A program made the position numbers and the translations under genes. From Phoronis australis (Eukaryota; Animalia; Phoronida), in NCBI GenBank assembly GCA_002633005.1, contig NMRA01000021.1, forward strand, positions 1,519,392-1,583,391: DNA of 64,000 nt. The letters run 5' to 3'. Under the pieces are notes generated by a model, which saw only the letters and a list, made by a program, of their open reading frames with translations, searched no databases and was not told the origin of the DNA. The number at the start of each line of letters is the position of its first letter. The stretch's first letter is position 1. Shown here piece after piece: positions 34,659-61,964 of the stretch.

Positions 34659-36420
34659 ACGTGAATAATATAAACCTCAAAATGACAACAACACGAACAA
34701 TTACATTATAAGAATACCATCACTAATGATAAAATAATCAGAATTACTTCACAAAACAAATAAAGTTCAGAATAATTACAAAATATATTATTATGTATAT
34801 TTCTCAACAAAGTGATCATTAACAACATGCCAAAGACTAAAAACGAGTAAATGATATCTAATGCATTCTCAAATAAAATAAGATTTCCTAAAAATCATTT
34901 CAATTAAAAGTAGATGCAATTGATACATGTTGTAATGATTATTTGAATTTGTAATTAACATTCAAAAACTCACATGCCATGGGGTGGCATTCATCCCATG
35001 GGACATTTGATCCTCACCTAGGACTTTCCACTGTCCCATGTGAGTTTTTTCAAATGAGCCATGCCACAATCAAAATGGCACATGTCATAATTGAAATGTG
35101 TTAAACTGTGACAAGGGTGTTTTATTCCTGTGACTTTCTATTCAACAACTGATTTTAATTAAAAGTTTGGGATTTTAATGAGCAATTGGACTGCTTTTAA
35201 GCACACGGTCAAATTGTTACAATATTTGTCATTCCATTATTTGTCTTTGTCAAGTCATGATGATGGAGTTATGCTAGGGCTGATGTGTTCAATTTGTTCA
35301 CTTTAGACAGTAAACGAACAATTCACACACTGTCACAATGTCAAAACTGTCCCCTCACAAATTTCTAAAAATATTCTAGGAGACATGAAATCATAGTGAA
35401 TCCTTCCTTCTCACCAAGACTGCCCATTTGTCTACATATGCCAGTCATGCTCATCAACAGTGTATCTCTTTTTACACCATCAATAGTTTGTTAACACTTC
35501 ACTAGCTACATAACGTAGAGCACTGTACCTCAGCAAACAAAATGCTATACTCATCCATTCTGATCCAAGGATACCAAGTTATAATAAAGCAATTGGTTCT
35601 ACACCACGTCACTGTAGGCGATGAGTGAATAATAAATCACAACCTTTCGATGACACACCGCACCAGTCACACTCATCTCATATTTTTTTCTGTTCTTTTT
35701 CAAAACAGCCATGTCACACAGTTGCAAAGTTTCGAAAATTATTCCACATGTCGAATCATAACCACAATCTTTCATTTTCACCAAGACTGCCCATTTGTCT
35801 ACATTTGCCACAGTTTTACATGCACTACATCGTCCATTCTTTTAACTGAATTGACTGGCAACATACTAAGTGATGTCTTGGTTGGCAAAAGTCTTATTCC
35901 CTATCACTTAACACTATATTGTAGGGCTATATCCCAAATGTATATTTGGATGTACAAACAGAAATTGGTGCCCAATGCAAACCACATTTGTTATGTCCAT
36001 TTCCCATTGGTGATAACCCGACTCAAACAAGAGATAGAAATATTTTGGTTCTCAGGAAGCCATATATCCACCTAAACCATCTAGCCAGCTGTATTATAGA
36101 GACCTCAAAAACTGGCACCATCCATTACTGCCATTCATCCGCACCCATGTGCAGGGGTTAGGTGTATACTCTTCAAAATATCTAATACGCAACGTTGAAT
36201 GAAATGACCATACAAAAACTCTGAACATATTGTAAATACAATGAATACTATATATTAATTAATATAAAAGCAGAAATAAATACACCAGTGCTAAACAAAG
36301 TAGACTGAAACAAACTCAGTGCAAGGTTGTTGGAAGTGAGGGGGAGTGGGGCTAATGCTGCGCAGTGGCAGATTCATAGTGACCTTTTTCACGTGCGTTC
36401 ATTCCTCAGACCTTGCCAAT

Positions 36421-40000: not shown

Positions 40001-43000
40001 TACTGGTCACAGACCAGGGAGAGGGAAGATCTGTGCAGTTATCATCAGGCATTCATAAAATGGCTGCCACTAAATGGTCTTCATAAACCGCTTCAAAATT
40101 TTGGAAAGTTAAAATTTAAGTCTTCAACAACATTATCTACACGTTTCTTAGAAATTCATACTTTAAGCTGCTAATTTAGATTTGTAATAAACTAACAGGA
40201 AATGTGGAAACAAACCCAGAAATTTGGAGTAGCAAAACAACAGACTTAAGGCTATCTAGGACCTTAATATGTGACCTCAACTTTAAGACAAATTATCGAA
40301 AAAGCTAAATATGCTTTGTCAACCATTGAAAGTATATTTTCTGAAAGAAGATTAGATTCTAAAAAATAAATATGCATCTTACTACTGTGTCTTTCTCATT
40401 GTCACGTGTCCAGTAAGTCAAATTTTCATGTGCAACAATGGTAAATTCATAGCAAAATAACCCCCCACTGATTTTACTAAAACTTTTTGAGTGAAAACTT
40501 TACGTTATGTCTCAAAACGCTGTGAGGAATTTTTGATAATTCACTTAGTTTGGTTTTGCGTCAAATTAATTTGCAAAACACAAGGCATTTTTGTAAAAAA
40601 ACAGCAGTCTTATTCGTATATCCACGAGGTCATTTATTAAGTCCTAAACAAACTTAGAAACTTAGCGCAGGAGAGTCTCTTGCATCTGTAGTACATGACA
40701 ACCACAATTCACCTCTCCTTTCCTGTCAATAGTCCAGACATCGTCCAGCTCCATTTTGAAGTATCCCCCAGCTTTTGTGGATTCAAAGTACTTCTCTATC
40801 ACCTGAAAATGAATATCAAATTTTTCAAAGGCCATGAAATGAATTGTACAAACCTCCTCCGTATTATTTTATTCTAATAACAAAATCATCCACTCCAAGT
40901 ATGACATTTCGAAAACATTTAAAAAATTTAAGTCAGAATGACTCAAAAATAGCAGGGTCTTTTCAAAAGTCGGTGGACGGTGTTAAAACAAGCACCCAGG
41001 GGGCACTTAATGAACTCAAAAGCAGGGGCGTTGGGCGTTAAAATAAGCAGCGAGCATTCACATGACAAAATATGGCAATACATTATGTTAATAAATCTAT
41101 ATTTAGAGAGGACAGAACCTGAAACTCCTTTTCCTTTTTGGCCATCAGTCGAAGGTCACAGTTCAAAAGTTCATAGTTCACATCCAGAGGATGAGGGACC
41201 TCTGCTTTTTCCTCTGCCACCTTTTCAGCACTCTTCTCCATACTCTGAGCTAATTCAATATCAGCAAGAACCTGCCATTGAAACATGCCAACTCATTAGG
41301 TCACCACTTGTGACGACACGATAGCAAAGACATTACACTTTGTGAGAAGCTTTTCACTCACTTGCGAGGAAGGAAATGTATTCACTACAAGTCGACGAGA
41401 ATTTTTATTATGCTGTTGCCAAGGCAGTGGCAGATCTACATTTTCAGTAAGGGGGGTTTAGGATTCGAGCAAATCCGAAGCGCGTAGCGCCAAGCGCAAG
41501 GAAGGTTGGGAGAGGTTTTACTCCTCCCGTGTAAGATTTTTTTGTGGTTTTTAGTAGCTAATTTCATTTTTCTGGCAAAATTTTTTTCAATTTTTATTTT
41601 TGGTCCTTTCAAGAGGGGGGGTTTGAACCCTCTGAACCCCCCCTGTAGATCCGTCTCTGAAAGCCAAAACAATATTTTTTTTTATAATTCAGGGCAATCA
41701 GACTTTTTCTTCACAGCTGGCTCGTCTTAATGATTTGTATCTTACAAACAACGCAATTCTTATATTACAAAAGATTTATCTCCATAGCCAAGCCCATTTG
41801 TAGGATAGAGTCTGGCTTCTCAATGCAAGTCGTAATGTTTAAAGTAGTGCCCCGTGTCTGAGTGTTATAGACCTCATCACCGGCTTCTCTATGCAAAACA
41901 TAATGTTTAAACTAGCGCCCCCTGTTTGAGTGTAAGAGGCCTCGTCATTAGAACAGAAGCAAAGGAGTTACTGTGTATGAACATAATTACTCAAAATGAG
42001 AAATTGCATTCACGACAAAACTATACCATGAATAGAACAATCATTTCTTACATACCATATCTGGGACACATCAAGTGACCTACAGGTAATTATAGATCAT
42101 GTAATGTGACAAATATATGGTGAGTAGTTACGTACACTGTATCAATGCGGTAATTGCACAATTATAAAATCATTAATATGTTAGTTACATTGAGCAGGCC
42201 AATATAGCTGCTATATTCAAAAGGGAAATAACGTTTCACACAAGGCCAGTACCGGAAGTTTAAATTCCAATTTCATTTTGCGATCCTAACAAATGAGATA
42301 GCATTTCTTGTTTTCTACAGTAACAGGGTTGTGTGAAGATGTCACAGTTGTTTTTGGCTAAAAATTTGAAGTTGGCCTTTTTCGAGAAGTTAATTTCAAT
42401 ATCCTGGAAGTTAATGAGAAAGAAATATTGCACGCCCTCAACATATAATAATCTGTTATTTGACACTAGACATACCAATAACATATCCATCTTCTGACGG
42501 ACAGTCTCGGCTGTCTGGATTGTTGGGGGTCTCTGTCGTCCAAAGTCATGCGGAATAAGTGTGTAAAAATTTGATGACAACTGTTGAAGCTTTGCTGCGT
42601 TGACTTTTTTGGAATTCAGACTTTTCTCGATTTCTTCCAAAACCTCGAAGCCCTTAGCAATCTGAGTCTTGCTCAATTTACCCAGTGGCATCTTCTTTAC
42701 ATCTGGAATGATAATAATAATAATAATAATAATAACAATAATAATAATAATAAATATCTTTATTTTGAACAGAATGTCCTCCATGACTTGAGAGAATGAG
42801 GTGCAAATGGAATTAAAAACTAATTGCTCTGCATCAATATAAAATTTGTCATTTTAAAATAGTGCTATTAAGTAATACATTAGAAAAGTAAACAAAAATT
42901 TATTCAGTAACATAAAAGGGCCCTTGAGGAGGCAGTGTGGCCTAGTGTGATAGGCGCCCGTTTTCTTCACTCGAGGTCGTGGGTTCAAGTCCCACTAGTC

Positions 43001-46000
43001 TACACTGTTAGACCCTTGAGTCAGGTTTCTAGCTTCTTAGCTCGGTTTAACTACATATTACTAACTAAAGCATAAAAATGGTTCCAGGTGATGCATGCAA
43101 TGGGCCCACATGAGGGGCCAGCGCACGTCTGGTTCATGTACCAGACCGTCTGCAACTATTTTTTATAAAAGGGACGTTCACTCAGAATGAGAATATTAAC
43201 TAATTGGAGGTTCTTTTATCAGAAACAAATTTATGAACACCGGCGCCACCTAAAGGCAGAAAGCTGTTTGTTTGAACTCCCAAAATTATCACATCATGCA
43301 GCGCGTAACGAGACATAGCAACGTCACTTCACAACAACACAAAAGTCGGCTATGACAGTGAAAACTGGGCCAAAATGCTCTCTTGGAAAATTCACCAAAA
43401 CACTTAAAAAAACAGGCATAATCAGAGCAACGCATGGTAACAGTTTGGAAATTCGCATTGGCTAAAAACAGGCAGGTGTCAACCATATCCACCTACACAG
43501 TTTTGCCTATGCGGACTTTGCCTCACAAAATCACATGTTGTCCCTGTTAAATACAAAAAGCTTTCTCACGCTTTCTTGGCTTAACTCCAACTATTGTACA
43601 TTATAATTTTTGTGATAAACATTAAAAAATACAAAAGCCAAAAAGACAAAAATTATCAATAAGTTGTACAGCGATGAAAAACGACAGAAACTAAAGTAGA
43701 CAGTTAAGAAATATAAAACAGCACCATTTTTGAGAGTTCTGAGCCTGGAACAGCTCAATAAGCCAGTGGCCACATCAATTGCTTTCAATGACATAACTTT
43801 AGGACTGTCTTTTATCAGAGCTGTCTAGATAACCTGGGCCACTGTGAAAGTGGGTCAGGTTATCAACTAGATGATTGTGGATTGTTATATTGACCTTTGA
43901 CCTCAGTCCTGTATTTGCACTGTTTTCCCCAATGCAGTCTTTGTTTTGCTGTTACTCAGATATTGGTTGAGTTTGCTGTTCACCTCTCGTTATAATTTCC
44001 ACAATAATCTAATGGATCTTTCCCATACACGAAACTCCGCCACTATCAAAAGCTTCGATGTTATTTTGGTTAATCACAAAGTTAAGCGTAACCATTCCAG
44101 CTTTGGAATACGTATTCAGCTAGTAGGCTCTCGAGAAAATCAAGAGGGTGATAGGTAATGATCATTAATTTAGTAATTCAGTAAAGTTATTGTAATGTGG
44201 CACTAATATGACCTTCACCTTTTCCATGTATGGATGGCAAATTTTTTAAAATAAACAACCCAGCAAGTACACAGTCAGTCAGATAAATTGAAACGGAATA
44301 CTCGGCGGTTAATTTACACAGTCAGTCAACTTTGATTATTTTATAATTAGTATCGTTTACAACATAACCAAGCAGTATCAAATGCTAGTTTATGAAATAA
44401 AGCATGCATTAATTAAAAATGAAAATATAAAGACGAGTGATCAACTCAAAACTCACCTATCTCAAAATTCTGCATAGCCTCCTTAAACATATCCTGATCA
44501 AATATCAGTTTAATTAAGGCTTGTGTGGTCTTATCCAGTTTGCAGGGCAGGACCTTTTTGTCACTGGTCACCTTGGCTCCAGAATCAACGACATCTGTGG
44601 CCTGCAATTGAAATCGTTAACAATAAAACCGTTGAAAACAAATTTCAAACATGTGTCCAAATTTAAGTGACGTGGTTTGAATCCACACCTAACTGCTCCA
44701 TGTTCCTGTTGGCGACATTTTAGATAGATTCCAGCATGCACAATAAAAAATCAGAAAAAATAACTAATGTAATTTCTTGTCCTAACAACAGGGTGAAGCA
44801 CCATCCATCAAGACTTGAGAACAAAAAGTAAATTACTAACAATTTAGCAATAAGTCTTGCTCAAAGCAGACTTAGCCCTCATTATGAGCAAACACTATTT
44901 TGTCGCATTACTTTAACAGGACAGTCTGGGATGACACAACGACTCCCGAATCTTGAGCTATTTACCCACAATGTCGCAACATCCATCAAACAGTTATATG
45001 GCCTCTCTTCCGTGATACTGGAGTTTATTTGTTGGTGCCCTGATTCTTTCAAAAATTTCTCAACATAATTATAGTTATATTCGACCTTCCAGCAGTTTTA
45101 CTGCTGGGTTGCATGCTGCAACTCCAATGACATAAAGTTGGATAAACTGGGACTCTTCCATGAGCATGCGTTACGAAACTCAATCTCTCTCTGAAAGGGC
45201 TTGGGACGACAGACGTCAAAAAAGAAGAAAATTTTCCAGGTGATGTATTGTTCCGCAAAGAAGTAGGATTGTGTGATAGAAATACTTGTTGTGTTGCACT
45301 AAACTGAAATAAACCTTTTGCATGAATTACATCAAAACAATGATAGAAAAAAGAGGAAAAAGAGAAAATTTTTAAGAAATCAAAAGAGGAAATCGAAACC
45401 AATTAAAGAGGAAATCCTCTTGAAAGAGGAAAATTTGTTTAAACATCTCACCTTCTTATGAACAAGAATCTTCATCACAGTATGAAATGAATTGAGTATT
45501 TTGATCAGCTAAGAAATCTTATGATTGACAGCGGTTAGTGGGAAATAAAACGTTCAAGCAAAATAATTCTCTCACAATTTAAAGTTTCTGCAGATTTCAT
45601 GCACACTTTTCGTCACAGACGGCATGGCATAATTGGGACCGCATTGTCTCACTGAAAATGATACGGAATCTCATCTGTTGCATGGCAAACAGCAAAGGTG
45701 TGAAAATGCAGAAAACGTTGGAAGTGAAAAAAAGAAAGAAAGAAAATCGTCTGACCAACCTCATCATCCTCGCCTCCGTCCATCTCTAGAAGGACGTACT
45801 TCCCAGCCACAGGTTTGAAGTCATCTCGTTTGTCCCAATCATTCTTCGTCTTGTCCTTAAATTTTTTCTTGAAGTCCGATATTGCCAAGTCCTCACTGAC
45901 AGGGCCATTCAATGAGTTAGCACCCTTTTCACCCTGTTGTTAGAAGATAAATAGATGTAACTATAATAATTACACGCGCACACTGAATAAAGCATGTCTT

Positions 46001-48199
46001 TCAACTTGGTACTACAGGATGTTATTTTGAGTAGAATTTCCACTGTCAATAGGGACAATACACTACGTTCATCACTAAAAAGTCAAACATTTCGAATGTC
46101 AACTTTTTTAAACAAAACACGTCTTTTGACGACTCTTATTTCTAAAAGTGAGAGCCAAAATTGTTCTTCACAATAATCCAGCCAACACAGGAAAACAGTC
46201 TGCACAGGTACATATCAAAATGTATTGTGAGGAAAGAGACAAGAAATCAAAACAGTTGGAGCTCACATTATTATATTGTGTTTCTATTCAAGTAGCACTC
46301 AGCCTGATTCAACCGTATATGCCGAAACGTTGACTTACACAATGTCTTTGTTTATGTATGCGCTGATTTTAAAGTTCGCACTCATATTTTGATCAAAAAC
46401 AAATGAATTCAATAATAAACTAAAATCCAACAAGCCTCACCACTCTACCCCACCGGTTCCAAGCGTAGAATCCACCACTCGCCTGCAACACCTGTATGAT
46501 GTAGTACTTGTTGTTGTTGTTTCCAATGTTAGTCTGGTTCAACATGCAGTCAAAGTCTTTGTACACCTGTGTATAATTAGAAACAGGTCTATGAATCGTA
46601 CAGGTATTGATCATATCCACATCAATATGTACGAAATACGCAAACTGTTTTGCTGTTACTTCCTGAAAGCCAGAAACACATTATGTAGATAACTTCGCTA
46701 AATACTCAATCTTCTTACCATTTGGACATCACCTGACACAACTTTCATGCATTTTTCTCTACGGTTTCCAAGAAGCACACAGTTAAGCAGAAAAGGGCAT
46801 TCTTAACCCATTACACCAGTCAATCAGAGTTCCCAATGCCTGACATATTCTTTTTCTATTACACCTTAGTAAACTTAGCTTAGTAAACTAGTGTACAGTA
46901 ATACGCTTAAATGGCCATGGTGAATTTCATAAATTCAGTGTTCTCCACAACCTACTTTGACTCATCGCAGTACCAAGTTTGAATTCCATCCAGACGAGTT
47001 TGGCTTACAGCACTTGCATTGAGTTTGAAAACCTAAGCTTTGGGAGATTAGCCAAATCTTCAGCAAACTGGGACATTTTGGACTCTAGGCACCCCAATGC
47101 GTATATACTTAGAATTAACTGCGCAGATTATATTTAGCAGAGACACAAACTGCCAAACAGATTCATGGCTTTTGCAATTATTCCCGTTGAGTTTGAATTT
47201 ATTTTCCGTCATTAAATCACTTTTTTGTAGTATTCCATTTTCACAAATGAAGGAAATTTGCTCAGTAGACCCAACGGATTTTCGAGAAAAAAATTTCAGT
47301 AACTATGAAAGCGAAGCAATACTTTAATGTTGTTTAGAAAACGAAAAATTAACAATCCTATTCTTTACTTAATAACTAATTGTTTTTGAATTAAAACTTT
47401 CACTCAGTTCTGTTATAAAAAACGAACAAAATATTTTGGTAAAGCATTGAAGGACATTTTGTCTCATCTCAAAAGTTACATGCATCCCAGCATTACAAAT
47501 ATCCCCAAACAAAAGTAGGTTTCAAGATCAGAAAAGAACTGTCAGAGTCAATTGTGAAACATTCTCATGATTTTTGTTTCACCTTGCAGGTCTTAAATCA
47601 ATTATGAACCCAACAACAAAACAGAAGTGTACAAATTGATGAAGACAAATGGCAGTGGTACAGGATATAGGCTGCACTTGATTGTCTCCATCAATGACAG
47701 CAGGTTAACTGACTAAGATATTGAATTGGTTATCGATGACGACTTCCGCCTTATAAACCAATCCGGTGGAACTTGTAAAGTGAATCAATAGTAGCCACCA
47801 TTAACAGCATAAAAAGACTCTACAGAGGTTATTACAACTTGCGATATTTTATTGAAAAAAAATCTCATGAATGATCCCATGTGGATACAAAAACCATCTA
47901 CCCACAAAATCAAGAATACTTTTCCATGTATTGAGTGAATGGATCGGATAATACACTGAGGAAACTGCAATGCGGTATTACTTTGTTACATATGAGCTGA
48001 AAGAGTGTAACAGCATATAATCTCTTACCGAAGCGCCTGCCACAGGGAAATATGAATCTACTTTAAAGGTCTTCTTCTTTCCTTTGTCTGCCTCTTTCAA
48101 CTTTGTCACCGTGTCAACAGGTGTCACTACCTCTTGTTTTGCTTTTTTGCCACCAGCACCCTTTGAGCCTGCTGTGGTAGACTTGCGCTTAGGAGGCAT
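37087..48199 (-). CDS. PARP3: Protein ADP-ribosyltransferase PARP3 (WGR, regulatory and catalytic domains); 10 coding exons, 531 aa
   Basis: Exons: 48199-48029, 46566-46441, 45933-45760, 44601-44457, 42702-42476, 41271-41119, 40802-40713, 39700-39523, 38688-38533, 37262-37087. All GT-AG with consistent phases, 1596 nt. Motifs: DCMLNQTNIGNNNNKYYIIQ...WNRWGRVGE (WGR); KKMPLGKLSKTQIAKGFEVL...FYTLIPHDFGRQRPP (regulatory); LLWHGTNVAVVAAILKSGLRIMPHSGGRVGQGIYFASE and QSEYLVYKESQCRMRYLL (catalytic). No zinc fingers or BRCT, and the LRIMPHSGGRVG loop indicates PARP3. Confidence 0.96.
41425..41659. mobile_element. Non-autonomous DNA transposon (hAT-like MITE) in a PARP3 intron
   Basis: Ends cagtggcagatctac and gtagatccgtctctg are imperfect TIRs. 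Internal GGGGGGTTT tracts are typical of such elements. Confidence 0.6.
42710..42752. repeat. (TAA)n microsatellite at the PARP3 exon 5 splice acceptor
   Basis: About 14 taa units, 7 nt from the exon boundary at 42702. Confidence 0.95.
42926..43164 (+). mobile_element. tRNA-derived SINE
   Basis: tRNA-like head with A box (tggcctagtg) and B box (ggttcaagtccc at 42982), and a T-rich tail. Flanked by an imperfect direct repeat, ataaaagggccctt (42912) and ataaaagggacgtt (43165), consistent with a TSD. Confidence 0.7.
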
Positions 48200-48427
48200 T
48201 GTATTGCTAAAACTGATGAAATATTACAATAAGGTACGTGTTGATCCCCAGCTGAGCTAACAATTCATTGTCAAATTCTAGCCAAGGTTCTTGATCCACA
48301 AATACAACACACAACACAATGCTGTGGAGAGATGGTGCTCTCACATCACTTAGGATTAAAACATCGTGCTATCAATCCAGTGTGCATCACAAAAAAACTG
48401 ATTTTGACTTATACAATGTGTCGTTAC

Positions 48428-48650
48428 AAAATTTGTCTCAAATTTTTCCTCAGACAAACTGGAGGTGATTTCAGAGCATTGAAGGAACTTACAGTTTGTT
48501 ATTGCTTGAGACCAGGCTCCACAAAATGGCATGTCGCAGCACGCCATTTTATACACTGAGCCTGGTCTCAACAAATAACAAACTGTCCGATCTTTGCAAA
48601 ACAAGAAATCATTTGCCATATGATTCAGGAAAAAGTTGAGACAAATTTTA
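48428..48650. repeat. Foldback inverted repeat (old MITE-like hairpin) just upstream of the PARP3 start codon
   Basis: Inner arms acagtttgttattgcttgagaccaggctc (48491) and gagcctggtctcaacaaataacaaactgt (to 48586). Outer arms aaatttgtctcaaatttttcct and aggaaaaagttgagacaaattt. Confidence 0.7.
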
Positions 48651-50831
48651 AAGCAGTGAGTGGTTCAAGTTGCGAGTTCTTTTCTTGGAGAGACTGGGAG
48701 ATTATAGCTGCCTTGTGTTATTGAAATGAATGATGAGGTTAAAACCAAACACTTATCGTAATAAGGTAACCAATGATAGAGAGACCATGCTTTTCTGGAA
48801 ATGAACAGAATAGATCGTTCGCAAGATAAGAGGATTCATTTTCGTTCCCCTTTAATTGATGTCCTGAGGTTTGTAAGAACTCGAGCTGGCTTTCCATGTG
48901 CAGAGCTGAAGACTATTATTTGTCACACTTTTCTATGGAACTAAGTTTTATTTTTACTTATGTTGGGGTTTTAATTAGGAAAAAAAATTTACGGTAAATA
49001 TAATCTAAAAAAATGACCGAGACTGATTCTGACCACCAATCAAATGATGATTATTAAGCAGGCAGATATTCAAGTCATTCTTCACTTTTTCTGAAGGTGG
49101 CACTGAATTCTTTTTCCAGTCTTGACAAACAATGAACGTGATGTGCAAACAGTGTTTAAGAACACCAAATTACCGGTATTTATTTCTCAGCCAGTAAGCA
49201 AAACCCGATGGAATTTCACCCAGCACATCGTACTTTTCACCCCCTATCTCCCTACACTGGCCTTCATCGTACAAGATCACAGATGCAGTATAGTACAGTG
49301 AGTCTATCCGTAGCCTTCACTCGCGTGAGGGGAATGGTGGCTGTGCCTTCTGAGGGTTGAGGTGAAGATTAGAGAGCTCTATTAATTCTAACCAAGGAGG
49401 TCACTGCACCTCATGTGCAGTGCCTCAAGCAGTCAAAACTAATGTTTTAATAGAATCATATAGTGATTTTAAGCTTCAGGGGAATGTTTTAATCATTGGA
49501 GAGAAATTTTGGGACCTGGTGAACAGAATTTCACGATTTTTTACATTTTTCAGAGTGGCTGTGGTCAATATCTGTTGCTGCTCGGGTAAATTCCAGGACA
49601 CAATGCTGATTGATAAGCTTCCAAGCACCCATGGCGTGACAGTGCACCCACAATCGACAGCGCACCCATGATCGACATCGCACCACAATTACCTAGAAAT
49701 TTCAAATCGCCCTACAGCTGTCTGGGATGGTTTACTAGTACCTCGTCACTTTGTCGTGAAACTTGTATTCAGATGCAAAGCTAACAACCGCAGGGTTGCA
49801 TGAAAAATCTGGGAGTTAACGCACACTCACTTTGCCGTTACAGCCATTTAAGCATAAAATAATTCAATAAACATCTGATTCATTTTCTTGGATCAATCTC
49901 CAACTTTTGTAACTGAATAAAGTCTGTAGTCGACTTGAAATCAGTAAGCTCTTTACACGTGTACGCGTCATTTACCTAACTTTTTGCAGCATCTCTCGGG
50001 AGATGATGACAGATTCACTGAAGCTCATTTTGCTCAGAAATCAGGTTCACTGACCAGTGTTAAAATACTAAAAAAAATATAAGGAAGGGGAACCAATTCT
50101 GATAACTTGTTGTACGTGACATGTACGCAACCTTGTCGAAGAAGAATAGCTGATTGAAAAATCATCAAAAGGTGAAATTGGTAATACAAGATAGTGATGA
50201 AGCTCTATTTCATGGCGTTGAAAGTTGGCATATAAGATTTGCTCCATAACTTCAGCAGCAGAATGCATAACAACAATCTTTTAGCACCATGCAGTAACTA
50301 AATTGTTTACTCAACAAGGAAGAGTTACTTTAAACAAGGTTAATTTTTGTGTCTGATGTTATTTGGACATTTTTTATCCACATCGGTACAGCTTTGCACC
50401 TAGCAAGGCAACTTATTTTGATCTGTTAGAATAGAACATGCCTCCCCATCAGGAAGGTAATTACAAGCATGCACCATTTCACAGCGGCACAGATCTATAC
50501 GACACAGATTCGCTATCTCGCCACAAAGTGATGTGCGTAATTACCTGCTAACGCTTGACCTTTGAGTTCCACGGAGGTCAAACAATGAATGACCCAATAC
50601 CCAATAGCAACCAACTACGCCTACTGCAATTGCCACAAGGCACAATTGGGATGAAATTGCGAACCTCGCCAGATTTCTGGTGCACCTGTGTCACTGTGTA
50701 ATGGAGTACCCGGTCTTTAGGCCTACTTATATGGTGAATACTATTACAACAAGTATGCTCCAACACTCCAACAGATCAAAATAAGCTACCATGAAAACAA
50801 GCCTCCAAGGGCAAGGTTACAAATTTACGAA

Positions 50832-52052
50832 GTACAATCGACTAGTACAACAAGCAGTCATCATCGAATCATCGAATCAAGGCAGTTCAGTTGTGAAGTG
50901 TCAGTATAATTCAGAAACTTAAAGAAGTTGAGTATTTACCGCACTCTTATCAACTAGTAGATGATAAAACAAGGCATTCAACCAGCGCTCAACATCCAAT
51001 ACAATGATCGATTTCCTAACCTTGCTCTCAACTAAGTCTTTGCCGAGCCTAAACTTGATTGACCGGTATGTTTTGCTAGAAACAGGAAGTTGTAAGAGAA
51101 CAATTAAATTCGACGATGTCGTTTCCTAAACTTATTATCTATATTCTGAAGTAAAATACTTACCATAAAGCAAAATAAAAGTAAAATTTCACTTGTGACT
51201 ATGAAAACGAAAGTTTTTAAAGATCTGGTCGTCGAAAAATATCTTTTTACCTATTATACTCTTTAGCGTTTGGAGAACACAAAAAGCAGTAAACAATGAA
51301 AAATGATTGGAAGTGTTCGCTGTAGTTTTCATCAAAATTTTGTTAAAAGGCTCACTTTTGTTCGTTTTTTGTGTGATGTTACGAAACTACGTAGAGGCCG
51401 TCAAATGCCTGCTGGAAAAATTGCTCTTTACGAAAACCCGTTACCTGAAGAAGGTCAGTGACAGTGAAATCTAGCCAGCCAGGCACCTCCGCTTTTAAAC
51501 TTGGAAATAATCATCAGATAATGACCATCGTCTGTGCTGGCGCAAGTGGCACAGACAATGGAGATCTTATAGGAGCTTCATACACCGGAAGCTTTTCGGC
51601 GAATTATGCCTCGCACTGACTAAAACATCAAAGTCACATTGTTATAAATTTGTTTTGTGCATAGATGGACACCTTAGCTAGGAGGTCGTCGATGTAGTCG
51701 GATATAATGGACCCTAACTTACTTATTCCAAATAAATCCACTAAATGTGGGTCTGAATGAATGATTTTGATATCGTTGCATTCCTCAGACATCTGGCTAT
51801 CCATTCATTTCCACCTCACGACCCTCAATTACTCCGTTCCATAACTACGCTATTCCAAACTCTGTCCACTTTAGCCATGCGCATTGTGAAATTGACAGCC
51901 ATTTCAGGGAACTTACTATATCTAGTGCCATCTATCGGCGATCTGCTACTACACATGCTGTTCCTTTTCATCAGTCAATGTCATTGGTCGATTTTGTCAA
52001 TTATTAATGTCATCGTTCGGGTCTCATGGACGACGATAACATGACGATGACA
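50832..52052. repeat. ~1.2-kb direct duplication, copy A
   Basis: Near-identical to 52520-53746. For example, ORFs 51757-52044 and 53451-53738 give almost the same translation. Confidence 0.95.
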
Positions 52053-52379
52053 TTATCATACTTTAACTTTGGCCCAAGGTTCATTGACACGGTCAAAACA
52101 CTCTACAACAAATCTTGTCTCTGTGTTCTCCAACATGGATTTTTCTCTGAATTTTTTGAAATGGGGAGAGGCTGTCGTCAAGGAGACCCCATTTCTCCTT
52201 ACCTTTTTTATTATGTGTAGAATTATTGGGTAATTTAATTCGTCGGGATGGTGGCATCACTGGTGTCAGGATAGGTGTTTCTGAGTTTAAATTGATCCAG
52301 TACGCTGACGACACTTGTTTGATTTTGGACGGTTCTGAGTTATCTCTAAGATCATCTTTGAATTTAATTGACCAATTTG
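52053..52379 (+). mobile_element. Non-LTR retrotransposon (L1/Tx1-like) reverse transcriptase fragment, frameshifted
   Basis: Translates LSYFNFGPRFIDTVKTLY...GFFSEFFEMGRGCRQGDPISPYLF, then a frameshift, then LGNLIRRDGGITGVRIGVSEFKLIQYADDTCLIL. Contains the RQGDPxSP and YADD motifs. Confidence 0.9.
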
Positions 52380-52519
52380 NGTTTGAATCAACGAATACTA
52401 TATATTTGTGAGAGTTAAATCAAGTCCTATTCAGATCATAACTTTGAAGTGGAATAATTGGGTGAGTAAGACAACAAGCCGGTTTTATGCTTAGGCGGAC
52501 GACTATAGGGTTTCGGAGT

Positions 52520-53746
52520 GTACAATCCACTACACTACAATACAAGCAGTCATCGACAGTTCAGTTGTGAAGTGTCAGTATAATTCAAAAACTTAAAGAA
52601 GTTGAGCATTTACCGTACTCTTATCAACTAGTAGATGTTAAAACAAGGCATTCAACCAGCGCTCAACATCCAATACAATGATCGATTTCCTAACCTTGCT
52701 CTCAACCTCAGTCTTTGCCGAGCCTAAACTTGATTGACCGGTATGTTTTGCTAGAAACAGGAAGTTGTAATAGAACAATTATATTCGACGATGTCGTTTC
52801 CTAAACTTATTATCTATATTCTGAAGTAAAATACTTACCATAAAGCAAAATAAAAGTAAAATTTCACTTGTGACAATGAAAACGAAAGTTTTTAAAGATC
52901 TGGTCGTCGAAAAATATCTTTTTACCTATTATACTCTTTAACGTTTGGAGAACACAAAAAGCAGTAAACAATGAAAAATGATTGGAACTGTTCGCTGTAG
53001 TTTTCATCAAAATTTTGTTAAAAGGCTCACTTTTGTTCGTTTTTTGTGTGATGTTACGAAACTACGTAGAGGCCGTCAAATGCCTGCTGGAAAAATTGCT
53101 CTTTACGAAAACCCGTTACCTGAAGAAGGTCAGTGACAGTGAAATCTAGCCAGTCAGGCACCTTCGGCTTCGGCTTCGCTTTTAAAAATTAAATTTGGAA
53201 CTAGATAATGACCATCGTCTGTGCTGGCGCAAGTAGCACAGACAATGGAGATCTTATAGGAGCTTCATACGCCGGAAGCTTTTGGGCGAATTATGCCTCG
53301 CACTGACTAAAACATCAAAGTCACATTGTTATAAAATAAATTTGTTTTGTGCATAGATGGACACCTTGGCTTAGCTAGGAGGTCGTCGATGTAGTCAGAT
53401 ATGGACCCTAACTTACTTATTCCAAATAAATCCACTAAATGTGGGTCTGAATGAATGATTTTGATATCGTTGCATTCCTCAGACATCTGGCTATCCATTC
53501 ATTTCCACCTCACGACCCTCAATTACTCTGTTCTATAACTACGCTATTCCAAACTCTGTCCACTTTAGCCACGCGCATTGTGAAATCGGCAGCCATTTCA
53601 GGGAACTTACTACATCTAGCGCCATCTATCGGTGATCTACTCCTACACGCGCTGTTCCTTTTCATCAGTCAATGTCATTGGTCGATTTTGTCAATTATTA
53701 ATGTCATCGTACGCGTCTCATGGACGACGATAACATGACGATGACA
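52520..53746. repeat. ~1.2-kb direct duplication, copy B
   Basis: Near-identical to 50832-52052 with scattered SNPs and small indels. Confidence 0.95.
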
Positions 53747-53839
53747 GATAAGATGGCGAGAGTGAGGATGACGAGAGCAGACATAACAATGATTAATAAC
53801 GATGACGTTAATAATTGACAAAATCGACCAATGACATTG
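53670..53839. repeat. ~170-bp inverted repeat / MITE-like hairpin with 41-bp arms
   Basis: caatgtcattggtcgattttgtcaattattaatgtcatcgt pairs with acgatgacgttaataattgacaaaatcgaccaatgacattg (1 mismatch). Confidence 0.85.
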
Positions 53840-54428
53840 TTGGAAAAAATGTTGGCTTTCAGCGCCATGAAATATTGTGTCACATATTGGCCAGATTCTT
53901 TTTTCGACGATTCTTCAATTAATCAAGGAAGAGAGAACTTTTTAGTTTTTAATGATATTAACTTTGTAACTTTGTTGCAAAGCTGTACAAATATATCTTC
54001 GTAATTGTCTGGTTAAAATCTTGCACTAAATTGTGTCATTACATTTGTTCACTCTCGAAAATTATTTTAACTGTGAGCAGTAGTTTTTAGTGTGATTGAA
54101 GCAATTTCAATGTAAAAGTAAAAAATGTGCAAATTGTATAAGTCAGCTGACCAGAATAAGTAATGCCATTATTATAACAACAACAATATGGCTATGGAGG
54201 TTTTTAGCAATATATTTTATTTAACTTTGTAAATTAAAGGGTCAAAGAAGAAAATTAATTATTGACATGAAAGTCTAATTTTGTTCCATTTTGTTCCTTT
54301 TTGTAGGTATATTTTCAGCTAAATGTTATTGTTGGAGATTAGTTTGTTTGCAAGGCAATTTCAATTCAAAGGAGGGAATGCTATGACATTGCCTTGGATC
54401 TTGATTGGCTTATGTTTTTAACTCCAGA

Positions 54429-57400
54429 ATGTGGTTAAAAAGTGAAATGAAATGCAGACTGCTGGACCAACCAAATTCATGTATGACATGTACTCACGTT
54501 TTTTCAGATGTATTCTACCATAATCGTAATTTTATTATGATTTCAACACCTGCTCTGGCACCGATCGTAGATTTGGGTCAACGTTTATCCTCAACTTCTC
54601 TCAAAAAATTCAATTTAGTTTTCTTCGTATTTCAATTTTCTACTCAGTCAATCATTTGCCAAGCTTTGTTGTCATATGTTTACATGTTTACCGCGTTAGC
54701 GTAACAAATTTTTACATGAACGATGTGCTCTTTATGCGTATAACATTACTCTTAGTATGCGTATAACTTTACACTGTTTTCACGTATTCACTCAAAAGTA
54801 TACATTTCTCACACAGGATGCTTGCGTTAATGCAACCCCTGATTTTTTGCTCTTTAATTTGAGCAGACGTTAACCTGGATGAGTATGGTTTGCTTTAGTC
54901 TGAGGTTCTGCTCCATGTGCAGGGATATTCCTGGACTGCACCTTTGTGCCATTAAGGCATAAAATATATAGAGACGGAAGTACATTGCAGCAGTGTGCCT
55001 TCCAGACCCATCTTTTAAAACACAACACTCTTCAAAAAATGCAAGATTCTCGTCAACTTTTTGCCAGTCGAGTAATATGTGATTCTTGTCTTAATCGCCC
55101 TTGGTGTTTCTGTTTCATATGTTACCACTTCAATTGCACTAAGTCTGCTGGGCATAACTTTTTGAAAAAAGGCACACGATTATGATCAGGTGTGACCAAA
55201 GGGCACAGGTTCAAACCTGGCCATGAATATCCCTGCAACTGACACTGCCTGCTGATTATAAGTGGTCCATGTACTTCATAGAAGTTTTAAGTTATCAGCA
55301 TAAAATATGTGTAATCATAGGTGCCAGAACTGTGTTATTTTAATTTTCAAACTTTGCTTACTTTCGTTCAAGGACTTTAGCACATCTATTCTTGATTTCC
55401 AGTTGAATACCTAAGAAAGAAATTTCCTCAACCCCAGCAGCTAGTTGATGAGGTCCTATCCTCAGTGGTGGCTGTGGACCCCACTGTCGTCCCACAGAAG
55501 ACCACTGTACCACTGATGCCATTTACACCTTGGGAAACATGGAAGGTAAGGAACTGCTGCATTCCTCTGGAATAATGCCTGATGTTGTCGGTTGTAACCC
55601 AAGTTGGTGATTTGGGTTTAGAACCAGAAAGTTGAATTTTGGGAGACAAAATGAGCATTCATGAAAATATGGGGCTCTACGCCCAATATAGTGTAGACTG
55701 TAAAATTTCACTAGGGGAGGTGGAGGGGAGAGGTTGGAACCATCCAAACATGACTATTTAGAGGTATTAATTTTGAAAAGTAGAGCTTTCTGTTAAGAGT
55801 TTGCCAAAAGCTATAAATGCTTTTATACAGGTCAGCTTACACTCCAAGTGGCCCGTAAAGTTCAAGGTCGCTGGAAAGAGCAGTCGGGTTGAGCTGGCAG
55901 AAGAGAATGCGTACCTGTTGGCCTGTGCTATGCTGTCTGTGAGTCGTGATAAATATTTAGTGCATATATACTTACACGTAATTAGGAAGATTCGTTTGTG
56001 GCACAGATGCATTGTGAACCCCTATCTCTAGCTATGACTGACATGTGCAGTGCTATGATTGAAATGGAATTTTCTCTAACAATTATTTCTTCAGTGCAAT
56101 AAATTGTGGAAAGATTTAGACACTTAATGCGCATTTAAGTCCACACAGGGCTGATTAGGTAAAGCAAACTTCAAATAAGAATAAATTGATATGGTAGCAG
56201 CCCTTCTTTAACATAGACTTCATTGAAAACACGACTATAAACTTTTTGTTTGAAAGCTTGATACAGGGTTGAAAAAAACACCTTTTCAGGTGGGCAGCTA
56301 TGTAGCAAAACAACGAGAGACATAAACAGTCAAATTAAAACACTTACTAACTGCTATGTTTCAAGACTGCACGTCTCATCATCAGGCAATAAGTAGAATG
56401 AACACATTATGAAGCAAAGTAAACTGTGAAATACATGTGACAGCGGGAAGAGGGGCATACAAGCAGAATTTGAATGCAACACACGATAGGAAGCCCGCAA
56501 CCCTATTGGAACAGAGCCTGTGTGCAGTACACACCTGCAAGCTGCTCATTCAACAGGTTTTTCGTGACTGATTAATAGCTATGTTATGTCTCTCGGTGTT
56601 TTGCTACATAGCTGCACACCTAAAGAAAGGAGATTGCTTTGACACTGCGAATGACTCTGTATAAAGCTTTCAAACGAGATTAGTCGTGTTTTCGTTGAAG
56701 AATTCTGTGAAATAAATGTACTGCATTCAGTCCAGGGTTATATCATGAGTTGTGTAATTATGAAAGTTAACTCGCCATATTAAAACACCACGTGAAGACT
56801 TCCACCCCAAAACCTGAACCGAAACAAGAATTCTCAAAGATAGCGCTGCCCACTTTGATTCGGAAGTTTTAAGCAGGTATTCCCATAAAATGTTCATGCA
56901 AAATTGAGACCCACTATGAACGAAAGTTGAACCTGGAGATTTTTGCATTTTGCAATTTTTGCGACTGCTTTCAACTGTAGGCTTAGGTTGAGGCGCTGGT
57001 GTCGTGAACATACAGTGTATTAGGCATCAACATTCATTTGTAAATTATGCGAAATTCAGCCAACAGACAACCACTTTGAATCAAACAATTAAAAATCAAT
57101 GCAATTCATTTTTGGATCCTCACCAAGAAGCACCTGTTCTTGCCAAGCCCAAAATTCGCTGCTGTGAAGTTATCATATTATTTAGGACCTTGGACTTGTT
57201 GACAGCAATGGCCAACCACTGGATTACAAGGAAACATTTTACGAGCTGCTAGAGAATGTGTCCCACAAGGCATTTACAATGCAGAAGATCAACGTGACGA
57301 GTACTCGCTATACAGGTTTGTATAACATAGTGTTGTTGAACTGAAAGGTGGATTCAAGGGGTCCGGGCCTCACGGTGGACATGCCGCTAAAAGCTGCCGA

Positions 57401-59975
57401 CAGGCTGCTTTCAAGAACTACTCAAACATTTTCCTGCAAGTTCATGGTTGCCCCCTAATGACATTGTAGACTTGTCAATGCATTAAACTTTTTAGTGCAA
57501 TGTACACATATAATTGAAAAATATTACCTCCCCCATACATATAAAGCAATGGTCCTATTTGGACAGATTAAGCATATTTGCTTGCGGTAATATCCAGAGC
57601 ATTCAAATTGTACCTTAGGTGAAGCCGTTAAACCAATCATGAACATTTAAAAGGAACATTTTTGAAAAGTTGGGTGAGTTTACCTGACAATCCATTTGGT
57701 TAACGACCTGGGAATTGTATTGATGGATGTAACATTGGTAGTATTAATTAAAAAGTCAAACAGGGTGTGGATAAAGTGCTGGTTGTGACGCAAGAAAATT
57801 GCAAGCTTTTTGGGTCATGGAGCTCTGATATTCACAAAGATATGGTGCTTCAAAGAGGGATTCTATAACCAAACTTGGGTATAATATTTTTAAAAATTAA
57901 GGATGTGCGTTTAGCCGAATGTGGGCATTAACCGGCAGAAGATTACAATGAAACAAGGCTTGGAATTTTCCGCGGAAACACGGATTTCTGCTTTTTTCAA
58001 ATGTTCCGTCCGCGTATTTTGTTATATTTCCGCGTAAAAAAATTGGATTTGATATAAAATTTCTGCGGCAAATTCCTTTCTTACCGTGGCGTTGCCGACG
58101 ACTTTCACCTCAAAAAGCGGAAGTTGCACTTTATGTTTCGGAGGAATGTAAATTGTTAACATTGCTGGGGCATCTGAGATAGCGTGGTGGATTTTTCAAT
58201 GGCGTCTCGTGTGATTGTAAACCGCGGTGACAAATACTACGACTCTGCAGCCAAAATTGTGTGGAGATGGGAGTTGACGGACGAGCTAAAAAGACGCAGA
58301 CGCACGCTTCTGGAGGTGGTACCGTTTTTTTTTAGTCCCCCCGATTTTTGTTGGCAAAAGGTCCACATCGACTATGTCGAGGCTGGGAAGTGCGCATGTT
58401 TTGGGCCGTAAAAATTTCCGCGTTTTTCGTCATTGGTCATTCCAAGCCCTGATGAAATTAGGCCTACATTGTAAATTTGTGCCTATCACATTTTTTGACT
58501 TGAATGTTTCAACTGCTACTACCAGCTTCTTCACATAATATAAGGTCTGAAAAATCTCAAAAGTTTTTATCTTTCAGCTATTCAGAATCCATAGGCAATA
58601 AAACAACATTCTCAGCCAGGACCATCAAAATTTTTTTGTTAAGCTGTGTTCACTTACACTGGACAACTGGGATAATTGTATTAACGATGAGCAGGGTGGA
58701 CAAAGAACTGCTTTCACTGACCTTGCGTATTGATTTCAAAAGGCTTATTGTCTGGGTTGTATAATAATGGTTCGTAAAATTCTAAGCCAGAGTAATCATC
58801 ACTATGCAGACTAGTTAACCCCTCCTAACCCAACGTGGTAAATAGTTACCAAGAAATTGGGTTCATTCGTCCGATAATTTTTAATTTTTTAGTTTTTGTG
58901 TAAATCCTTTGTTGAATTTAATGTCGATGTATTACGGTCTGTGTGTCATTTTGCAGGCATCAATGGTTGTCTATGGAAGACGGTGATTGACTGTACTTGG
59001 CCATGTGACATTCAAGAAGTGGCTTATGGGAAAACTCAGGAGGAAAGTGAACGCAACGCCACCATGCACATCTGTGTCAAATTAAAGGTTACTGTTACTG
59101 TTCATTTTCTCCATGCTTGTATTTTCTCTAAGAGTTAATTTTTTCAGTCAGTGCGAACTATGTAGGACCCTACAAAAATGCAGTCAAGTCACCCTTATAT
59201 TGTGCAAGTTGCAGCTTGCAGCAGCAGAGCTTTCAACTGTTACTTGCAAGAAAAACATTAAACATTTTCAATTCTTGTGATCTGTTGTTGTTGGTTATGT
59301 AGGTAACTGAGTCTCTTCTCTCTGTTACAGTCTCTCAAGATCCTTGATAAAAGAAATCGGATCTGTAACCCAGTGGTGATGAGGCTATCCAACTTAACCC
59401 TAGAGTCAGATATTGATAATATCCAATGTGACTATGAGTTTTACGTTGACGCCTCTGTGAAAGGCTTTGGAGGATACCTTCTGACAATGAAAACTGAACT
59501 GCATGAAAATCCTATTTTGTGGATAAAAGAACCATGGCCTGATAATGTTCTCCATTCCTACACCAGGCCGTTCATTCCGACGACTTTCCTCGAGTTTTAC
59601 AGCATTGTGGCTACTGTGTACACATGGAAACGAAAATTTATGAATAAGAACGTCTTATGCTGGTGTGACAATCAAACTGCCGTCGACATTGTGAACAAGG
59701 GTCTATTCATGTCAGCGCCAGCGAAGCGGAACAAGTATTTCAAACTCTTCCAGTTACTCAGAGATACGTGCGTCAAGTCTAACATCACGCTTGTTGCAAG
59801 GCACGTGAGCAGAATTGAAAATGTTGCAGCAGACTCTTTAAGCAGATTCGACGTGGAGGCGTTCCGTGCAATGTACCCTAATTCTATGAATAAGGCAACA
59901 AAGACTAAGAAGCTGCTGTTCTTGTCACGGTTAATTCCAAAATCACCAAATGATGACACTGGTAAAGATTTATAA
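54429..59975 (+). CDS. Putative chimeric protein: two DHX30-like dsRNA-binding domains plus a DIRS/Ngaro-type RNase H domain; 6 exons, ~402 aa
   Basis: Exons: 54429-54480 (least certain), 55403-55545, 55831-55938, 57186-57315, 58957-59087, 59331-59975. All GT-AG with matching phases (1,0,0,1,0), 1209 nt, no internal stops. Translation includes EYLRKKFPQPQQLVDEVL...WKVSLHSKWPVKFKVAGKSSRVELAEENAYLLACAMLSDLGLVDSNGQPL and WKTVIDCTWPCDIQEVAYGKTQEESERNATMHICVKLKSLKILDKRN, then FYVDASVKGFGG...FLEFYSIV...CWCDNQTAVDIVNKG...ARHVSRIENVAADSLSR. Confidence 0.8.
56218..56700. mobile_element. ~480-bp element with long (~110-bp) imperfect inverted repeats, intronic
   Basis: Left arm cttcattgaaaacacgacta...tttgaaagctt...cagctatgtagcaaaacaacgagagacataa mirrors right arm ttatgtctctcggtgttttgctacatagctg...aagctttcaaa...tagtcgtgttttcgttgaag. 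Confidence 0.8.
57954..58451. mobile_element. Non-autonomous DNA transposon (hAT-like TIR) with a 6-bp flanking direct repeat
   Basis: Ends caaggcttggaat and attccaagccctg. ATGAAA lies immediately on both sides (57948-57953 and 58452-58457). Confidence 0.7.
59331..59975 (+). CDS. Terminal exon encoding a DIRS1/Ngaro-type RNase H domain
   Basis: Uninterrupted 214-aa frame behind a strong acceptor (tctcttctctctgttacag). D-E-D-D residues in VDAS, FLEFY, CDN and ADSLSR. Confidence 0.9.
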   Translation, partial: SLKILDKRNRICNPVVMRLSNLTLESDIDNIQCDYEFYVDASVKGFGGYLLTMKTELHENPILWIKEPWPDNVLHSYTRPFIPTTFLEFYSIVATVYTWKRKFMNKNVLCWCDNQTAVDIVNKGLFMSAPAKRNKYFKLFQLLRDTCVKSNITLVARHVSRIENVAADSLSRFDVEAFRAMYPNSMNKATKTKKLLFLSRLIPKSPNDDTGKDL

Positions 59976-59976
59976 C

Positions 59977-59982
59977 AATAAA
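59977..59982 (+). promoter_or_regulatory. Candidate polyadenylation signal
   Basis: AATAAA just after the stop codon at 59975, followed by a T/GT-rich tract. Confidence 0.45.
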
Positions 59983-61964
59983 GTACTAAACTAAGATTTT
60001 GTTGTAGAATGTCGTTCCTGTTACATTTTGAGTAGCACCAATTCAGTTGAATGACTTACCAAGCACTTTGTAGACAATCATGTTTTTCCGAGATGATTTT
60101 AGAGTTATAAACCGTGCAATGACTCACAATGCTCATAAAATAAAAATCGAAACATTTCTTTTTAAAAATACACTTGTCTGTATTGTCTCACTTCTTTTTC
60201 AGTGTTCTCAAATCTCACTGGTCGTATTACAATTGAATCCGACTTTCAGTGGTTATTTGCTTAAATATTTCATTTCCGTTTTTCCTCATCTCATGTTTGT
60301 CTCGTCATTCAAACTGTGCACCTAAGTTTGAATGAGGCCATTTGGTATTCAGAAACACCCTCACCCAATGCACAGGTTTCCCACGAGTCATTGACATTGT
60401 TAAACTGAGTTGTGATTCGTTGATTGGTAGCCAATCCTATTCTGGTATTTTTCATATTTTGGAATTTTCTCTGTATTGTACCTGTAACTATCCTGTCATC
60501 CATTCCTTGAATAAAGCTGGACAATGGTGGATGCTTTGCTGTCAAAACATGTCGCTATATTTTACACCCAGTAGATGTCTTTATTTAAACTTTACTTGTG
60601 TTTGTCAGCCTGAGTGCGAGATCATTCACCTACACTGTATTAAATGGTTTGAAATGCTGCACAGGTTCCAGTATGGCACATCTGCCTAACTTCGATATCG
60701 TGTTTCCTTTAAACTTCCCCGAAATATGATCACATCTCACACACAAAGCTTCAAACTACAAATGATAATTCAGACTGGTATCCTTTCAATTGGAGGTTGT
60801 ATTATACTTTCTAGTCTTTCAGGGAGTTGTTATTCGTCAATAAATTGCTACCTAGACCAACTACAGTGACAGTTCACGTCCTCACTGCCTTGAAACGCAA
60901 TTAAAATCCTACAAAGCTGAAATGTACATGGCCAATTAGGGAGGATGTTACTTTGCATCGACAACTTCAGTTCGATGTACTACATTGCTTCCATAGCTCC
61001 AAAATGACCTGCAGATTAAATCTACGATAAATGCATGGTCTCGAGTAATAACGAACTGTCATTTTTTTGTTAGGGCGAAACTTCAGACTTCGACTCCAAC
61101 TTCGGATTAAGTTGAAAAAAGATAAAATTTAGTGGATAACATCAAATGTTATTTTGTAATTTGACAGTGTATTTATTGTGCTAAGCCAGCATCTAGAATT
61201 GTGAACGGACAAATTTCAAAGATTTACTCAAATGTTGCTCATACAATTGAGGTCGTGTATATAAAAACACAGCTTCTTGAGTTGCAATTCCGCAGTAGTT
61301 TTCAAGGTAAAATGGGCCACTTTGGAAATCGCACTTCGCACTTTCTCGAAGCTGCGACAACTTGCCTCCAGTGTCGATTAGTTTCATATAGGGGCAAGGC
61401 AAAGAGGTAACGTAACATTGGATCCTAATCTTCGACTAAAATGCTTTTTAATCACAACAAAGTTTTAATTAAACTTACTCTGACAAGACGTTAGTCCAAG
61501 TACTGTGGCAGGGTCTAATGGAGTTCTGTCGAAGTCCAGTTTAGTTTGAAAACTACTGTACGTACGAATAGGTACAAAAGCGCGAATGTGGTTACCAAAT
61601 ATTGGTGTAGATTGTGGCTATCAAATGTTACCTCTGTGTTAATTATAAACATAAATAACGACACAATAATGTTTATGTTATGTTGCATTTCAATATTTCT
61701 ATATTATACAAGGAAGCAGTCCTGCGCATGTAAGACTTGCCATCATGTTTATTACTTTGTAAAAGCGTAGATCATGCATAGCACAGGCACAGGAGTTTCA
61801 AGATGACTCGTAACCATAAGAAACACATTATTTTATTATAGTGAATTTTGTGATTGATGATCGAGGAGCAGATAAACTCAAGGTTCTGAAACAGCATGAA
61901 ACAGAAAGACAATAGGATAGAGTAAAATACATATTAGTTTGTGTGTAAAGATAACATTAGTTAA

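Follow-up and report, generated by a model that had tools for sequence, protein, structure and literature searches.

Does a retrotransposon-type RNase H exon that lies downstream of exons for two domains of the double-stranded RNA-binding type (dsRBDs) belong to a genuine host gene, and if so, where did this gene come from and what could it do? The question is raised by a locus of the phoronid Phoronis australis, within a 64,000-nucleotide stretch of contig NMRA01000021.1 (hereafter, the window), where a first-pass annotation had placed, at positions 54429–59975, a candidate domesticated fusion of DHX30-like dsRBDs with an RNase H of the DIRS1/Ngaro retrotransposons. We find that the window gene is an expressed, spliced, real gene. 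The best reading of its history is that of an ancient domesticated transposon gene, which is supported by the existence of a family, an invariant catalytic tetrad, shared introns and the grouping of the family in one clade. As far as can be judged from the sequences, the fusion is ancient and family-wide, so that the idea of domestication stands, whereas that of an event local to the window does not.

A spliced and expressed gene

The first-pass model consisted of six exons, joined at four GT-AG introns with matching phases into a stop-free protein of 402 amino acids followed by AATAAA. Four public runs (X1–X4) were aligned to the window, 54000–60400 first and then the upstream region; X2–X4 are stranded raw reads from the same study, and X1 comprises contigs from a second study, the RNA status of which is guessed. 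All four introns named in the model are spliced out in the reads: 55545/55831 with 92, 83 and 9 reads (here and below, in X2, X3 and X4, respectively), 55938/57186 with 92, 118 and 10 reads, 57315/58957 with 90, 79 and 10 reads plus an X1 contig, and 59087/59331, which links the exons of the dsRBDs with that of the RNase H domain, with 77, 72 and 2 reads, again plus an X1 contig. The first mates at all four junctions lie on the minus strand in X2–X4, so the transcript is most likely a plus-strand RNA; all features of the gene given below are on this strand. Read counts are similar across the joints, which makes the RNase H exon the regular terminal one. Among the junctions listed for X1–X4, none leaves this exon, and exon 5 is spliced to it, rather than to helicase exons, at the same read level as seen at the other joints, as the first-pass annotation had proposed.

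The start of the gene is different. The originally proposed exon 1 (54429–54480) has zero depth in all four runs and was rejected; instead, reads splice from 51453 to 55403 (43, 34 and 4) and from 53128 to 55403 (48, 34 and 1). The true exon 1 (copy A, 51291–51453) begins at a cluster of seven molecule ends among the aligned reads at 51291 and encodes residues 1–50, the main ATG at 51303 opening a reading frame of 435 amino acids. It also contains a short, out-of-frame upstream open reading frame (ORF) that starts at ATG 51296 and a second in-frame ATG at 51405. A second, near-identical copy of this exon occupies 52966–53128, with its ATG at 52978. Exons 2–6 stand as modeled, with their joints covered by reads. 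Exons 2 (55403–55545) and 3 (55831–55938) encode, respectively, the first half of dsRBD1, with helix 1 and strand 1, and its second half; exon 4 (57186–57315) encodes a linker and the first half of dsRBD2, exon 5 (58957–59087) the second half of dsRBD2, and the coding part of exon 6 (59331–59975) the intron-free RNase H domain. The AATAAA is located at 59977–59982, and RNA depth drops steeply past about position 59991; low depth persists beyond this point, and a second AATAAA is present at 60139.

A family in molluscs and annelids and the likely sources of its two halves

A search with exon 6 retrieved a 401-amino-acid protein of Lamellibrachia (43% identity), the N-terminal half of which matches window exons 2–5 (33%, E value 1e-25). 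HMMER, run over 1.84 billion representative sequences, produced 575 matches, the best 150 of which were listed. Look-ups and the profile search together put species names to members of the family from 14 gastropods, 6 bivalves and 2 annelids, 22 species in all; all named members come from molluscs or annelids, and many matches carry no species name. These proteins are annotated as ‘hypothetical’, as ‘uncharacterized’ or by the name of one domain. The layout of the window gene holds for 16 of 16 family proteins scanned with Pfam, which shows neither reverse transcriptase (RT) nor helicase in them, and RT is present in 10 of 11 long lower-ranked matches. In relatives, genomic fragments are interrupted where the window gene has its introns, and the RNase H part is a single exon. 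The intron after exon 3 is family-wide in position: in 15 of 16 dsRBD1 fragments, the end of exon 3 reads through GT to yield Val. The intron 55545/55831, inside dsRBD1, is missing in 16 genomic fragments of relatives and thus appears to be lineage-specific. Scores in the ESM Atlas reached 0.81 and 0.76 and serve as leads only.

Within the family, seven members of the heterobranch type among the gastropods (P0022, P0027, P0031, P0033, P0036, P0038 and P0039) have leaders of 170–250 residues, a long insert within dsRBD2 and a Trp that replaces H379. They form a diverged subfamily (tree support 100/100). Another full-length member, P0026, is very divergent, with large inserts in the RNase H domain and all four catalytic acids kept, and could mark the edge of the family range.

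For the dsRBD half, the sole significant sequence match in PDB is 2DB2, the dsRBD of KIAA0890, which we take to be DHX30 (E 4e-5 with the family protein P0001 and E 2.5e-9 with the family profile); this bears out the DHX30-like character proposed for these domains. With exon 3 alone, 2DB2 is the best PDB match as well, but a weak one (E 0.17); matches to Sir2 and cyclin structures were dismissed as chance-level. In blastp comparisons with P0001, exons 2–3 show 38% identity (E 6e-16) and exons 4–5 show 30% (E 3e-8), and the profiles of dsRBD1 and dsRBD2 match each other. The AlphaFold model of P0001, built from a 59-row alignment (predicted local distance difference test, pLDDT, 87), contains two alpha-beta-beta-beta-alpha domains with the dsRBD fold, at residues 25–96 and 109–184, plus the RNase H domain, in agreement with the domain content deduced in the first pass. 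Fold searches with this model return the tandem dsRBDs of TRBP, Loqs and MLE as well as RNases H1, and dsRBD1 matches 2DB2 with a template modeling (TM) score of 0.66 on the target; the score of a homodimer prediction for P0001 is 0.00. The family thus resembles DHX30 in its tandem N-terminal dsRBDs and in the match of dsRBD1 to 2DB2, and differs from it in that no helicase core is present in the gene, in the transcript or in the 16 members scanned, and in the loss, for the most part, of the Lys-Lys of 2DB2.

For the RNase H half, the model of window exon 6 adopts an RNase H fold (AlphaFold pLDDT 85.7), and the top 18 matches in a fold search at Z of at least 8 are RNases H or RT-RNase H chains. 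Sulfolobus RNase HI is one of the two best matches (Z 12.4, root-mean-square deviation (rmsd) 2.4, 122 residues, 18% identity), and the catalytic domain of human RNase H1 is matched at Z 10.7 (rmsd 3.4, 126 residues). By sequence, exon 6 has no match in PDB at E up to 10; Pfam detects no dsRBD in single window exons, only a weak RT_RNaseH (E 0.046), and NCBIfam yields only sub-threshold RNase HI matches, in one of five proteins. The four catalytic acids noted in the first pass are indeed kept, namely, D261 (59448), E309 (59592), D334 (59667) and D389 (59832). Together with the neighboring N385, they are invariant in 25 of 25 full-length members and in 42 of 42 family RNase H domains, despite only about 40% domain identity across the family. 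Judging from the model, this domain is likely a nuclease of the type 1-like fold with an intact D-E-D-D tetrad, the hallmark of two-metal-ion catalysis (PMC9719913).

Among the best 150 of the 575 HMMER matches, the nearest sequence relatives of exon 6 are RT-linked domains of retrotransposon pol proteins, as they would be if this exon were a chance-caught transposon fragment or if the whole were a mobile element with captured dsRBDs. We consider either possibility extremely improbable: the exon is spliced at steady depth, the same fusion and introns occur in molluscs and annelids, the family is a single clade that tracks its hosts, RT is found neither in the members nor in the window, and pattern scans detected no relative in 593 metagenome and 242 viral contig stretches. 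When 13 transposon pol proteins were compared with the window, they matched the RNase H exon only and revealed no RT or other domain of tyrosine-recombinase retrotransposons, as expected from the first pass, in which no RT was seen nearby; furthermore, none of the repeat pairs listed flanks exon 6. The window gene is not a mobile Ngaro or DIRS1 element.

The clade is apparent from a careful phylogenetic tree, which covers 149 columns and 105 RNase H domains (after removal of 21 near-duplicates and of the long rows P0092, P0026 and P0086) and in which the 41 family members make up one side of a branch with support of 100/99, as opposed to 64 transposon domains; the bootstrap was not fully settled, and the tree includes neither cellular RNase H1 nor a curated Ngaro sequence. 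In a quick tree of 108 rows that retained the three long ones, the support for the family is 85. The branches within the family roughly track host groups, the domain from the window being nearest to that of Lamellibrachia. A profile built from the family gives members at least 125.7 bits and transposons at most 105.2 bits. When 42 family domains are compared with 66 transposon domains, R382 is found in 41 of the former and in none of the latter, and K321 in 41 and 4, respectively; a basic C-terminal tail (K412/K414/K415) is specific to the family as well.

Among the 66 nearest transposon domains, 61 end no more than 40 residues past the RNase H domain, that is, without room for a methyltransferase (these relatives are unnamed and some may be cut). 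In DIRS1, the RNase H domain of pol is reported to be followed by a methyltransferase, and Ngaro is reported to lack one (PMC3266345; PMC9210276). The donor of the RNase H domain therefore looks Ngaro-like rather than DIRS1-like, such that the first-pass assignment to tyrosine-recombinase retrotransposons holds in general and its DIRS1 part probably does not. The family domain and the RNase H of Ngaro-type pol (order DIRS) have common conserved columns that include the tetrad and three Trp. Unlike such pol proteins, the members of the family lack RT, gag and tyrosine recombinase, are spliced to host exons, carry the specific R382, K321 and basic tail, and form one clade tracking the hosts.

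Predicted location and activity

The first 34 residues of the window protein include 8 Lys/Arg and 1 Asp/Glu. In the 20 members that have a leader, the first 30 residues are enriched in Arg (8.8% vs 4.2% in the body) and depleted in Asp and Glu (4.1% vs 10.5%). N-termini with no more than two acidic residues and a net charge of at least +2 are found in 20 of 25 members, compared with 107 of 374 internal windows, and of the five that do not qualify, four have leaders no longer than 20 residues and are probably cut models. The leader sequences themselves are barely similar (median 18%). This Arg-rich, acid-poor and poorly conserved character is typical of mitochondrial presequences. It suggests a role in mitochondria more than one in nuclear R-loops or antiviral defense, and the dsRBD-RNase H protein is predicted to be mitochondrial. 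Human DHX30 is reported to exist also as a mitochondrial isoform, the import signal of which is encoded by an alternative first exon (PMC8430983), and the window gene resembles it in carrying a presequence-like leader on a separate first exon.

The reading that we tentatively favor, with slightly less than even confidence, is that the protein is a mitochondrial two-metal nuclease that cuts RNA in RNA:DNA hybrids, is docked by its dsRBDs and grips the duplex with new basic residues. Before molluscs and annelids diverged, part of a DHX30-type gene, comprising the leader and two dsRBDs, would have been copied and become spliced to the RNase H end, free of introns, of a retrotransposon pol. The leader would import the protein into mitochondria, where two metal ions bound in the D-E-D-D tetrad would cut RNA, while the dsRBDs, with their RNA-binding lysines mostly gone, would dock the enzyme on mitochondrial RNA-protein assemblies, and the new basic residues of the nuclease (K321, R382 and the basic tail) would hold the duplex. 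As targets, this reading envisages primers of mitochondrial DNA (mtDNA) replication or R-loops on this DNA.

Several points count against this reading or parts of it. In animals, RNase H1 is reported to be imported into the mitochondria already (PMC6433063), and one would have to explain why a further hybrid nuclease is there. Duplex binding by the dsRBDs is doubtful because the RNA-binding lysines are mostly lost: the two positions of dsRBD1 equivalent to the Lys-Lys of DHX30 are occupied by a basic residue (Lys/Arg) in only 1 and 9 of 25 members, and those of dsRBD2 in 0–2 of 25, which weakens the parallel, drawn in the first pass, with RNase H1 as an enzyme with a duplex-binding module. A KKxAK motif at helix 2 is described for type A, RNA-binding dsRBDs (bioRxiv 10.1101/466763), and degenerate type B dsRBDs are described as binding proteins (PMC5716075); in both dsRBDs of the 25 members, most lysines of a KKxAK-type motif at helix 2 are missing, and by their sequences these may be docking domains. 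The case for DHX30 as the donor is a single PDB match that involves dsRBD1 only; Pfam finds dsrm in none of 16 family members, and no full-length DHX30 is among the best 150 of the 575 HMMER matches. With respect to the leader, the hydrophobic moment in the window protein does not stand out, given that 35% of the internal windows of this protein score as high; a cleavage motif occurs in 10 of 20 leaders compared with 5.5 by shuffling, the pattern having been picked after the data were seen; and the composition counts are not independent given that the members are related. As for selection, seven of seven near-fixed exonic differences are synonymous and an eighth, minor one is not, a count that is not a ratio of nonsynonymous to synonymous rates (dN/dS) and comes from 8 exonic rows within the 40 of 373 differences that were listed.

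If the substrate were RNA alone, redundancy with RNase H1 would be avoided. A protein of the same origin and in the same organelle would then trim or cut duplex or structured mitochondrial RNA in DHX30 RNA granules, with maturation of ribosomal RNA, processing of polycistronic transcripts and removal of antisense duplexes as example tasks. The relation of the N-terminal half to a helicase family of mitoribosome assembly and RNA granules (PMC8430983) is compatible with such a role, as are the family-specific changes on the RNase H surface, and Sulfolobus RNase HI, a top fold match, is reported to cut double-stranded RNA (dsRNA) in vitro (PMC9719913). The same source, however, presents the Sulfolobus enzyme as the only dsRNA-cutting RNase H reported, a fold match at 18% identity says nothing on specificity, and the lysines by which the dsRBDs would bind dsRNA are mostly lost. 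We regard an RNA-only nuclease, the main rival to the favored reading, as unlikely, though not as far-fetched.

The first-pass view, in which a hybrid nuclease of the nucleus or cytosol has R-loops, viral nucleic acid or retroelement intermediates as its targets, seems to us rather improbable, given that the leader points to mitochondria instead. In its favor, RNase H1 is reported to make mitochondrial and nuclear forms via an upstream ORF and two in-frame ATGs (PMC6433063), and the window gene, too, carries an upstream ORF and, behind the leader, a second in-frame ATG; a nuclear R-loop role is reported for DHX30 (bioRxiv 10.64898/2026.10.25.761626), and the basic tail could act as a nuclear signal. 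However, a conserved second start codon was rejected, as the second Met is missing from several full leaders (those of Patella, Gigantopelta, Haliotis and Dreissena as well as P0008, P0009 and P0026), and the presequence-like composition is family-wide. Moreover, the family has been inherited vertically over a long time with no expansion visible among the matches, unlike fast-moving defense genes.

There is also a slim chance that the RNase H domain, while binding metal and nucleic acid, is no turnover nuclease but mainly a scaffold or clamp. Degenerate dsRBDs are typical of the protein-binding type B (PMC5716075), which would suit such a function. Against this function, the four acids and the neighboring Asn are invariant even at the low domain identity within the family, and scaffolds usually lose catalytic acids.

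Surroundings of the locus and meaning of the fusion

The first exon of the window gene lies in a tandem duplication of about 1.2 kb (50883–52052 and 52557–53746, 94.6% identical by blastn), probably an assembly or haplotype duplication; one N, at 52380, lies between the two blocks. The duplication (50883–53746) doubles the promoter and the first exons of two head-to-head genes, the starts of which are a few hundred bases apart. The 5'-most exon seen of the second gene, on the minus strand, spans 50940–51100 (upper end approximate), and its joints, of the CT..AC form, are 48212/50940, 48212/51021, 46564/48027, 45932/46440 and 44600/45759, with 50940 and 51021 being alternative donors. The exons can be followed at least as far as 44600, in the direction of an exon at 42263–42853 that encodes a PARP regulatory domain (PARP_reg, E 3e-27); the alignment does not cover the connection across 43000, and the name PARP3 comes from the first-pass annotation only. 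Joint counts on the PARP side (42263–51100) are about ten-fold below those of the dsRBD-RNase H gene, and the two genes may possibly share a bidirectional promoter.

Between the duplicated blocks lies a short RT fragment (52008–52419; RVT_1, E 0.051), presumably of the long interspersed nuclear element (LINE) type judging by its motifs, which has no relation to the RNase H exon. Two high-copy repeats, one in intron 4 (57950–58453) and the other in intron 3 (56285–56624), are densely covered by RNA reads from elsewhere, and the latter has 41-bp inverted ends, resembling a miniature inverted-repeat transposable element (MITE). Farther away, four copies of tRNA-Gly(TCC) lie on the minus strand at 26630–29849 amid 42-bp and 171-bp repeats and represent either a small tRNA cluster or a tRNA-derived repeat; an array of a 24-bp unit with plus-strand open frames occupies 34367–34702; and several minus-strand open frames of 110–160 amino acids at 1000–5000, three of which were scanned and had no Pfam match, may be exons of another gene.

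By its sequence, the protein appears RNase H1-like in plan, yet it is apparently not RNASEH1, not DHX30 and not a mobile element. As in eukaryotic RNASEH1, a leader and an N-terminal accessory module precede a D-E-D-D RNase H domain. Unlike in RNASEH1, the accessory module consists of two canonical dsRBD folds rather than the hybrid-binding domain, the fold of which differs from that of the dsRBD and for which none of 16 members has a Pfam match. The catalytic domain is only 15–16% identical to RNase H1 structures, its nearest relatives being retrotransposon domains. In Imagin of crustaceans and in Metaviridae-derived genes, hosts have reportedly conserved a transposon enzyme domain as a gene of their own for hundreds of millions of years; unlike these, the present family combines a stand-alone RNase H of a tyrosine-recombinase retrotransposon with host dsRBDs. 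We found no description of a dsRBD-RNase H fusion in the literature (supplementary tables not covered), Pfam or NCBIfam, consistent with the first-pass impression of an undescribed architecture, and the text available of a review on RNases H (PMC5603734) does not mention it.

On the whole, we lean slightly towards the view that the mitochondria of molluscs and annelids have a further RNase H of independent construction, in which a leader and dsRBDs from DHX30 and an RNase H from Ngaro, fused in an ancestor, reinvent the layout of RNase H1, and which would serve replication or RNA processing of the unusually variable mitochondrial genomes of these animals. If this is the case, the family would represent an undescribed instance in which the RNase H of a tyrosine-recombinase retrotransposon was domesticated as a stand-alone domain, with the fusion dating back roughly half a billion years, and a convergence on the RNase H1 plan from unrelated parts. 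The proteins involved are filed in public databases as hypothetical or ‘RT RNase H-like’ and are easily masked as transposon debris; they would provide a nuclear-encoded candidate for mtDNA or RNA metabolism in a large group of animals with little-studied mitochondrial machinery.

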